Below are positions 12,577 to 12,925 of a DNA stretch of 64,000 nt, piece after piece. The stretch is taken from assembly GCF_003334785.1 (NCBI RefSeq), contig NZ_QOWV01000005.1, one strand, 5' to 3'. The notes beneath the pieces were generated by a model that saw nothing but the letters and a program-made list of their open reading frames with translations, was not told the DNA's origin and ran no database searches. This DNA is from Escherichia coli. GTDB lineage: Bacteria; Pseudomonadota; Gammaproteobacteria; Enterobacterales; Enterobacteriaceae. A program made the position numbers and the translations under genes. How positions within the stretch are numbered: the first letter of the stretch is position 1; every line of letters starts with the position of its first letter.

Positions 12577-12925
12577 AATTAAAATGATCTTCTTGAGATC
12601 CTTTTAAGCTGCGCGTAATCTTCGGCTTGTAAACGGAAAAAGCCGCCTTGCGGCGGCTTTTTCCGTCCGATTAGAAGTCTTCGACCTCTTCTAATCGACT
12701 GTGGTAACTGGCTTGATGGAGCACAGATACCAAATGCTGTCCTTCCAGTGTAGCCGCTATAAGGCTTCAACTTCAAGAGTTCTGCGTATCTAAATCCACT
12801 ATCCAGTTACCAATGGCTGCTGCCAGTGGCGTTAAGTCGTGTCTTACCGGGTTGGACTCAAGACGATAGTTACCGGATAAGGCGCAGCGGTCGGGCTGAA
12901 CGGGGGGGCGTGCACACAGCCCAGC
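12577..12925. other. ColE1-family plasmid replicon remnant: RNA II promoter and 5' region with antisense RNA I gene; origin proper absent
   Basis: Near-colinear similarity to the pBR322/ColE1 RNA II leader as remembered (e.g. ...cttcttgagatcc...gcgcgtaatct...accaaat.ctgtcctt...cagtggctgctgccagtggcg.taagtcgtgtcttaccgggttggactcaagacgatagttaccggataaggcgcagcggtcgggctgaacgggggg...); similarity stops near 12925. Confidence 0.6.
12637..12740 (-). ncRNA. RNA I-like antisense RNA of the ColE1-type remnant
   Basis: Minus-strand region begins ACAGCATTTGGTATCTG (cf. RNA I 5' end ACAGTATTTGGTATCTG), is preceded by a conserved TTGAAG -35-like hexamer and ends in a GC hairpin (12635-12664) with a U-run. 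Confidence 0.4.

Follow-up and report, generated by a model that had tools for sequence, protein, structure and literature searches.

The closest described relatives of the locus reported here are the RNA I/RNA II control regions of the plasmids ColE1 and pMB1, in which RNA II is the primer precursor and RNA I its antisense regulator. RNA I supplied in trans is the incompatibility determinant of ColE1. ColE1-type replicons have also been found inside larger replicons. Truncation of a ColE1 origin after cointegration has been documented (PMC8683028), and pE66An, as cited in that report, is a case in which the origin was lost and the RNA I region was kept. From that report and general knowledge, we infer that an active high-copy origin in a large replicon is selected against. 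A further point of comparison is the pathogenicity island at pheU in Escherichia coli 042 (Dudley et al. 2006, as cited in PMC2808357), which is described in the 042 genome paper.

We analyzed a 64-kb stretch of E. coli DNA (the window), which contains a short ColE1-like element (Table 1). This element shares its order of parts with the ColE1/pMB1 control region, and its promoters match in their hexamers and in the 17-nt spacings. It also has three stem-loops and a 5' tail that is single-stranded, and the stretch equivalent to RNA II +200 to +318 is approximately 94% conserved. However, it is only 77% identical to ColE1 overall, its stem-loop sequences differ, and its stem-loop 3, which has a GCAA loop on a perfect stem of 16 bp, resembles a bidirectional terminator. 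It also differs in being chromosomal, in having RNA II cut at +303, and in having no RNase H site, origin, primosome site, or rop. By its sequence, the element belongs to the ColE1 RNA I/RNA II control module.

Closer matches came from two plasmids, pEA5_2 and pS19_141-f, which share with the window the gene order Tle1-like effector, DUF2931, RNA II promoter, and RNA I over a whole 1,107-bp fragment. Both are autonomously replicating plasmids with a full RNA II, an origin, and rop, which sets them apart from the window. The window RNA I differs from that of pS19_141-f at 4 of 111 positions and from that of pEA5_2 at 7 of 111, and the window DUF2931 gene is frameshifted. The truncated ColE1 copies in cointegrates such as pSTEC17_183-a resemble the window in being fused into a larger replicon, with the origin lost and the RNA I region kept, and replicon-typing tools still call such copies ColRNAI. 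However, the pSTEC17_183-a breakpoint is independent (+351, as opposed to +303 in the window), and the host replicon in the window is the chromosome. Finally, strain 042 has an integrase, IS1, a Gp2 remnant, a ColE1 remnant, DUF2931, and an SNF2-related gene beside a tRNA-Phe gene, with 99.9% identity to the window over the integrase-proximal module. The 042 genome paper (PMC2808357) mentions neither ColE1 nor RNA I, and a literature search found no description of this particular remnant or of a chromosomal RNA I. The locus adds to the known cases of truncated ColE1 replicons inside larger replicons. The fragment is very probably the nonreplicating leftover of a small ColE1-type plasmid that carried the Tle1-like effector and DUF2931 genes.

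Table 1. Positions of the plasmid-derived fragment, its parts, and the neighboring genes in the window
Feature	Position	Strand	Evidence or detail
Whole plasmid-derived fragment, 1,107 bp, truncated at both ends	11825-12931	+	Plasmid alignments
Tle1-like (DUF2235) phospholipase effector gene, last 21 nt	11825-11845	+	Translation (ALDGLF*)
DUF2931 lipoprotein gene, frameshifted	11857-12560	+	Pfam DUF2931, E = 5.7e-29
RNA II promoter	12593-12621	+	-35 TTGAGA (12593-12598), 17-nt spacer, -10 TAATCT (12616-12621); +1 G at 12629
RNA II primer precursor, 5' 303 nt	12629-12931	+	Three RNA I-target stem-loops; G-run at 12904-12910
RNA I antisense gene, ~108 nt	12633-12740	-	5' tail ACAGCAUUUGG, three stem-loops, last hairpin doubling as putative terminator; Rfam, fold, terminator-like site
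RNA I promoter	12748-12776	-	-35 TTGAAG (12771-12776), 17-nt spacer, -10 CTACAC (12748-12753); +1 at 12740
ColE1/island DNA junction	12931-12946	.	13/19 patch of imperfect similarity; junction alignment
Inovirus-Gp2/YagK-YfjJ-type gene, 3' part (479 bp), frameshifted	12935-13413	-	5' 150 nt removed by IS1
IS1A without target-site duplication	13414-14181	-	Ends read from sequence; PGAP
Island (tyrosine) integrase	14539-15801	-	Rfam and PGAP
tRNA-Phe (pheU), attachment site	16002-16074	-	Rfam and PGAP
Type III restriction enzyme	792-3662	-	
Type III methyltransferase	3665-5293	-	
IetS subtilase	5303-7690	-	
IetA ATPase	7700-8680	-	
Lone DrmD-like SNF2 helicase	8706-11555	-	668 bits to DISARM DrmD model

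The RNA I/RNA II control region

A first-pass annotation of this DNA had proposed that about 350 bp is colinear with the ColE1/pMB1 replication control region, and this was borne out. ColE1 (NC_001371, positions 594-958) aligned colinearly to 12582-12931 (E = 1e-70). When the 421 bp from 12540 to 12960 were used as a BLASTN query, at least 5000 ColE1-type plasmids were matched. An Rfam cmscan placed RNAI (RF00106) on the minus strand at 12633-12738 over the full length of the model (1-102 of 102), with a score of 59.9 bits against a gathering score of 47 (E = 1.9e-8). The stems of RNAI are preserved through paired changes on both sides, and the sole noncanonical spot is the apex of stem-loop 2.

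Folding of the 111-nt minus-strand RNA I gave three stem-loops (-54 kcal/mol; z = -8.6 against shuffled sequences), and ColE1 RNA I folded in the same way had the same architecture. The 5' tail was single-stranded, with an AU-rich RNase E site. The three stem-loops with compensatory substitutions that had been noted earlier are therefore present, and so is the perfect hairpin quoted with them. This hairpin, ggaaaaagccgcc-ttgc-ggcggctttttcc at 12637-12666, is a perfect palindrome that scores as terminator-like on both strands.

The same hairpin is stem-loop I of RNA II and stem-loop 3 of RNA I, with a perfect 13-bp GC stem flanked by A5/U5 and a loop of 4 nt that reads GCAA on the RNA I strand. 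Judged by these features, it looks like a bidirectional intrinsic terminator. It lies approximately 37 nt into RNA II, and the same sequence is found in pEA5_2 and pS19_141-f. Because it is kept in these replicating plasmids, primer transcription must read through it.

Both promoters had been described as intact, and the alignment agreed: all four hexamers and both spacings are those of ColE1. The RNA I promoter was also 100% identical in the pSTEC17_183-a copy and in the copy on the DETEC-P1056 chromosome. A generic sigma-70 scan reported no promoter site. This result is uninformative, because the hexamers are far from the consensus and the experimentally known promoters of ColE1 would fail the same rule equally. 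The hexamers, spacing, 5' tail, three stem-loops, and terminator, which are all the known elements, are present in the majority type of chromosomal copy. From this inventory, the RNA I gene looks expressible.

PGAP annotates a 48-amino-acid "replication initiation protein" on the minus strand at 12774-12920, inside the RNA II region, and the same annotation occurs on ColE1. To our knowledge, ColE1-type plasmids require no plasmid-encoded initiator. Therefore, this looks like a spurious open reading frame call.

The missing origin and the surroundings of the fragment

In alignments with ColE1 and with complete close relatives, similarity ended at 12931. This is RNA II +303 of the window and corresponds to +318 of approximately 555 in ColE1. 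The first-pass annotation had put the end near 12925, with no origin, and the absence of the origin was upheld. Neither the origin nor the RNase H site was found anywhere in the window, nor were the ~250 nt that would complete the primer, and no part of the window matched the rop regions of three close relatives. Of the parts of a functional ColE1-type replicon, the fragment has the RNA II promoter and the 5' stem-loops. The full primer, the origin, and the lagging-strand sites are absent, as is the accessory rop. With no RNase H site, origin, or primosome site, the fragment is predicted to be unable to initiate replication.

The fragment continues leftward beyond the control region. It is 95.8% identical to positions 1207-2314 of pEA5_2 (a 5.3-kb ColE1-type plasmid of E. 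albertii) and 89% identical to positions 3405-4513 of pS19_141-f (a 6.7-kb plasmid of E. coli), and the rest of the window had no other match to either plasmid. The gene for the Tle1-like type VI effector, of which only the end remains in the window, is present in full before DUF2931 in pS19_141-f, pSTEC17_183-a, and the DETEC-P1056 chromosome. The lesion in the window DUF2931 gene is a run of seven T's at 12005-12011, where intact alleles have eight (a 1-nt gap relative to three sister-lineage copies, described below). This frameshift cuts off the signal peptide and lipobox from the domain. Judged by its sequence, the window gene is probably a pseudogene. The T-run lesion is also found in 042 and E24377A, and PGAP annotates DUF2931 as two coding sequences in TW10722, 042, and E24377A. 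A PADLOC search with the DUF2931 protein returned no defense family.

A 4-kb stretch around the remnant is 100% identical to the chromosome of the enterotoxigenic E. coli strain TW10722. The remnant lies approximately 3 kb from the tRNA-Phe gene, and the interval contains the tyrosine integrase, IS1, and a gene remnant. Beyond the tRNA gene are the core genes dicD/yjdC, dsbD, cutA, dcuA, aspA, and groESL, which is the pheU position. Therefore, the remnant is part of the chromosome proper. It occupies the integrase side of a genomic island at pheU, between a defense gene cluster on its left and a shortened Gp2/YagK gene on its right.

ColE1/pMB1 origins are the commonest vector sequence, and contamination with a cloning vector, or misassembly of a plasmid read into the chromosome, could be suspected for that reason. 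We rejected this explanation, and its probability is close to nil. The element is only 77% identical to ColE1, and the same junctions occur in approximately 55 independently sequenced complete chromosomes. The fragment is also truncated and embedded between island genes.

The junction between ColE1 and island DNA was common to all chromosomal copies examined, including DETEC-P1056, CFSAN004176, CE0026a, and CE0007a. Next to it, the Gp2/YagK remnant is 95.9% identical to a Gp2 gene on the Salmonella plasmid pIndS102_4, and the gene is whole in the chromosomal copies of DETEC-P1056 and CFSAN004176.

The first-pass annotation had an IS1 without target duplication following the replicon. The missing duplication was confirmed, but the IS1 does not follow directly, because the 479-bp Gp2/YagK remnant lies between. 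As the agent that cut the replicon, IS1 was rejected, since 483 bp separate the two and the gene that IS1 truncates is Gp2. The flanks of IS1A differ (cagagaggg and tgttcccaa). Unlike flanks and the lack of a target duplication imply an IS1-mediated deletion or recombination between two IS1 copies, which would have removed the 5' 150 nt of Gp2/YagK together with the DNA up to the integrase.

The defense cluster directly to the left of the remnant occupies 792-11555 of the window on the minus strand and includes type III restriction-modification genes, IetAS, and the DrmD-like helicase. No further DISARM genes were found near the helicase. The 268-bp spacer between the start of this SNF2 gene and the plasmid fragment contains a match to isrK, an Hfq-binding RNA (11691-11770, plus strand; 56.8 bits against an Rfam gathering score of 50), with a terminator hairpin. 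This spacer is missing from the related plasmids and from the DETEC-P1056 copy. Elsewhere in the window, Rfam matched naRNA4/CssrE (27906-27976; 60.9 bits) and ES036/CssrF (56361-56403; 47.3 bits), which from their names (nucleoid-associated RNA) we take to be core-genome REP-type repeats.

Other copies and the history of the fragment

Both junctions of the fragment were found in approximately 55 complete E. coli chromosomes, including 042, 55989, O104:H4 outbreak strains, and E24377A. At least 80% of a 1,351-bp query was present in approximately 58 complete E. coli chromosomes, and approximately 50 of these copies, which sit in unrelated lineages, were 99.3-100% identical. The island module spread recently and horizontally, which accounts for the near identity of the widespread copies, and identity this high makes conservation uninformative about selection. 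It is no evidence that selection has acted. A scan of GTDB representatives (one genome per species) for the junction sequence gave no matches, a result that is silent on spread within a species. More generally, 5,426 complete E. coli genomes contained ColE1-like sequence at 252 places in their chromosomes.

The copy on the DETEC-P1056 chromosome keeps more of the plasmid, in plasmid order: rop, the full Tle1-like gene, DUF2931, and the 5' part of RNA II. It ends at exactly the same Gp2/YagK junction as the window. The right junction that this fuller copy shares with the window suggests that a whole plasmid integrated and was later reduced by deletions.

A sister lineage (CFSAN004176, CE0026a, and CE0007a) has an intact DUF2931 gene together with a 31-bp deletion in RNA I. 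From a shared BLAST pattern, A24 probably belongs to this lineage as well. The deletion (12623-12653) lies between cttcggct repeats. It removed +1 of RNA II along with 21 nt from the 3' end of RNA I, so that the terminator hairpin lost one of its arms. We saw no sign of selection on RNA I, since three copies carry this deletion and the other copies are too alike (99.3-100%). What the evidence says is that each lineage appears to have lost a different part, as drift predicts.

Some copies are mosaic. The window DUF2931 allele is 98.7% identical to that of pEA5_2 but only 85.7% identical to that of the DETEC-P1056 copy, a difference of approximately 14% behind an identical junction. The RNA I and promoter stretch of the same two chromosomal copies is 99-100% identical. 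In CE0026a, approximately 25 substitutions form a patch confined to 12716-12846. These mosaic copies indicate that the remnant has recombined (or undergone gene conversion) with resident ColE1 plasmids.

ColE1 copies without an origin are also found on F-type plasmids, where they arose independently (e.g., the +351 breakpoint of pSTEC17_183-a). Large F-type plasmids of Shiga toxin-producing E. coli (STEC; 108-133 kb) bear the same Tle1-like/DUF2931 module. In pSTEC17_183-a (NZ_CP075653.1, locus positions 649-5157), MOB-suite typed the ColE1 copy as ColRNAI despite the absence of an origin.

The DUF2931 gene raises the possibility that the cargo, not the replicon, explains why the fragment was kept. 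DUF2931 would be an orphan immunity gene in a family of islands that encode a type VI secretion system, and the replicon piece would be a passenger, with its hairpin perhaps serving as the terminator of the gene. DUF2931 follows the Tle1-like gene on all of the related plasmids, it is intact in the CFSAN004176, CE0026a, and CE0007a copies that lost RNA I, and in 042, the aai type VI system is among the contents of the pheU island (PMC2808357). The terminator-like character of the 12637-12666 hairpin on both strands also fits. However, in the majority type, including the window, DUF2931 is frameshifted and split from its lipoprotein signal, and an immunity role is proposed from gene order. We consider retention of the cargo very unlikely.

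Decay of an integrated plasmid remains the explanation that we favor, and the suggestion that the locus may be a relic of plasmid integration has held up well: the piece of ColE1-type plasmid is truncated at both ends, a fuller copy shares its junction, and decay is visible. We propose the following order of events, which is inferred. A small ColE1-type plasmid would have recombined into a tRNA-Phe (pheU/pheV) island just downstream of the Gp2/YagK gene, with the plasmid broken at +303 of the RNA II coding region. Deletions would afterward have taken away the end nearest the origin along with most of the plasmid. In the window lineage, a further deletion may have joined the end of the effector gene to DNA upstream of the SNF2-type gene. 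The locus now retains 21 nt of the effector gene, a frameshifted DUF2931, the two promoters, and the complete RNA I gene, with RNA II reduced to its first 303 nt. On this view, the intact appearance of the promoters and RNA I reflects a young insertion and a module that has changed little as it spread. The conserved ColE1 stretch would also have given resident ColE1 plasmids a region of homology at which to recombine with the remnant.

RNA I and plasmid exclusion

The first-pass annotation had raised the possibility that the locus is a chromosomal plasmid exclusion determinant. As a domesticated incompatibility determinant, chromosomal RNA I would pair with the cognate RNA II of an incoming plasmid of the Tle1/DUF2931 group and block primer maturation, so that the plasmid is excluded or destabilized. 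The RNA I gene and its promoter are intact and canonical in geometry. Stem-loops 2 and 3 are identical to those of pS19_141-f and pSTEC17_183-a, which makes some cross-inhibition plausible. The neighboring defense cluster (type III restriction-modification, IetAS, and the DrmD-like helicase) also fits, by association.

Several lines of evidence argue against this role. One concerns gene dosage. In a plasmid, the level of RNA I is set by a strong promoter and a high gene dosage (PMC11012335), whereas the chromosome offers a single-copy gene. By the logic of inhibitor dilution, the steady state fixes the concentration of the inhibitor. Thus, c extra chromosomal RNA I genes would lower the set point of the plasmid by approximately c copies and would not block establishment, since a single incoming plasmid would be free to replicate. 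For a locus near oriC, c would be one to four, and the copy number of a cognate plasmid would be lowered only marginally. Furthermore, if the locus is transcribed, it would make its own truncated RNA II target along with RNA I, and this 5' target would titrate RNA I.

Another line of evidence concerns the plasmids that could be excluded. An RNA I identical to that of the window was found in 0 of 72,556 PLSDB plasmids, and only 20 PLSDB records had an RNA I that is ~90% identical or better. The best autonomous plasmids were 96.4% identical in RNA I. Their four differences in 111 nt fall in the loop of stem-loop 1 (one), its stem (one), and the 5' tail (two). Among the 5,426 complete E. coli genomes, there was one autonomous cognate plasmid (in strain S19-141). 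With a single cognate plasmid, statistics on coresidence of the remnant and the plasmid are powerless. In addition, the sister lineage has deleted the 3' end of RNA I. With this lineage, the lack of an identical RNA I in PLSDB, and the expected effect of gene dosage all against it, the exclusion role is not supported, and we regard it as very unlikely.

The ideas of exclusion and homology can also be joined. RNA I expressed from the chromosome would then be a heritable anti-plasmid "memory" in a defense island, making the source Tle1-effector ColE1 plasmids less able to establish or less stable, and the ColE1 stretch may act as a homology landing pad at which effector or immunity alleles from plasmids are exchanged. 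The chance that this joint reading is correct seems to us very slim indeed. If RNA I did affect plasmid carriage, the locus would be a simple case of a copy control RNA reused as a host-encoded incompatibility function, although nothing here argues that it does.

For an integration relic, the main practical consequence is the risk of a false ColRNAI call, along with the spurious annotation of a replication initiation protein. ColRNAI replicon typing targets RNA I, and the remnant has this gene in full. MOB-suite makes the call on the pSTEC17_183-a copy without an origin, and the same false call could occur for the chromosomal remnant. Therefore, draft genomes of strains like 042, 55989, O104:H4, and E24377A could be credited with a Col plasmid that they do not have. 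The locus also provides a clean example from nature of how a genomic island can capture a small multicopy plasmid, with subsequent loss of the origin, and its mosaic alleles suggest that such remnants continue to recombine with resident plasmids.
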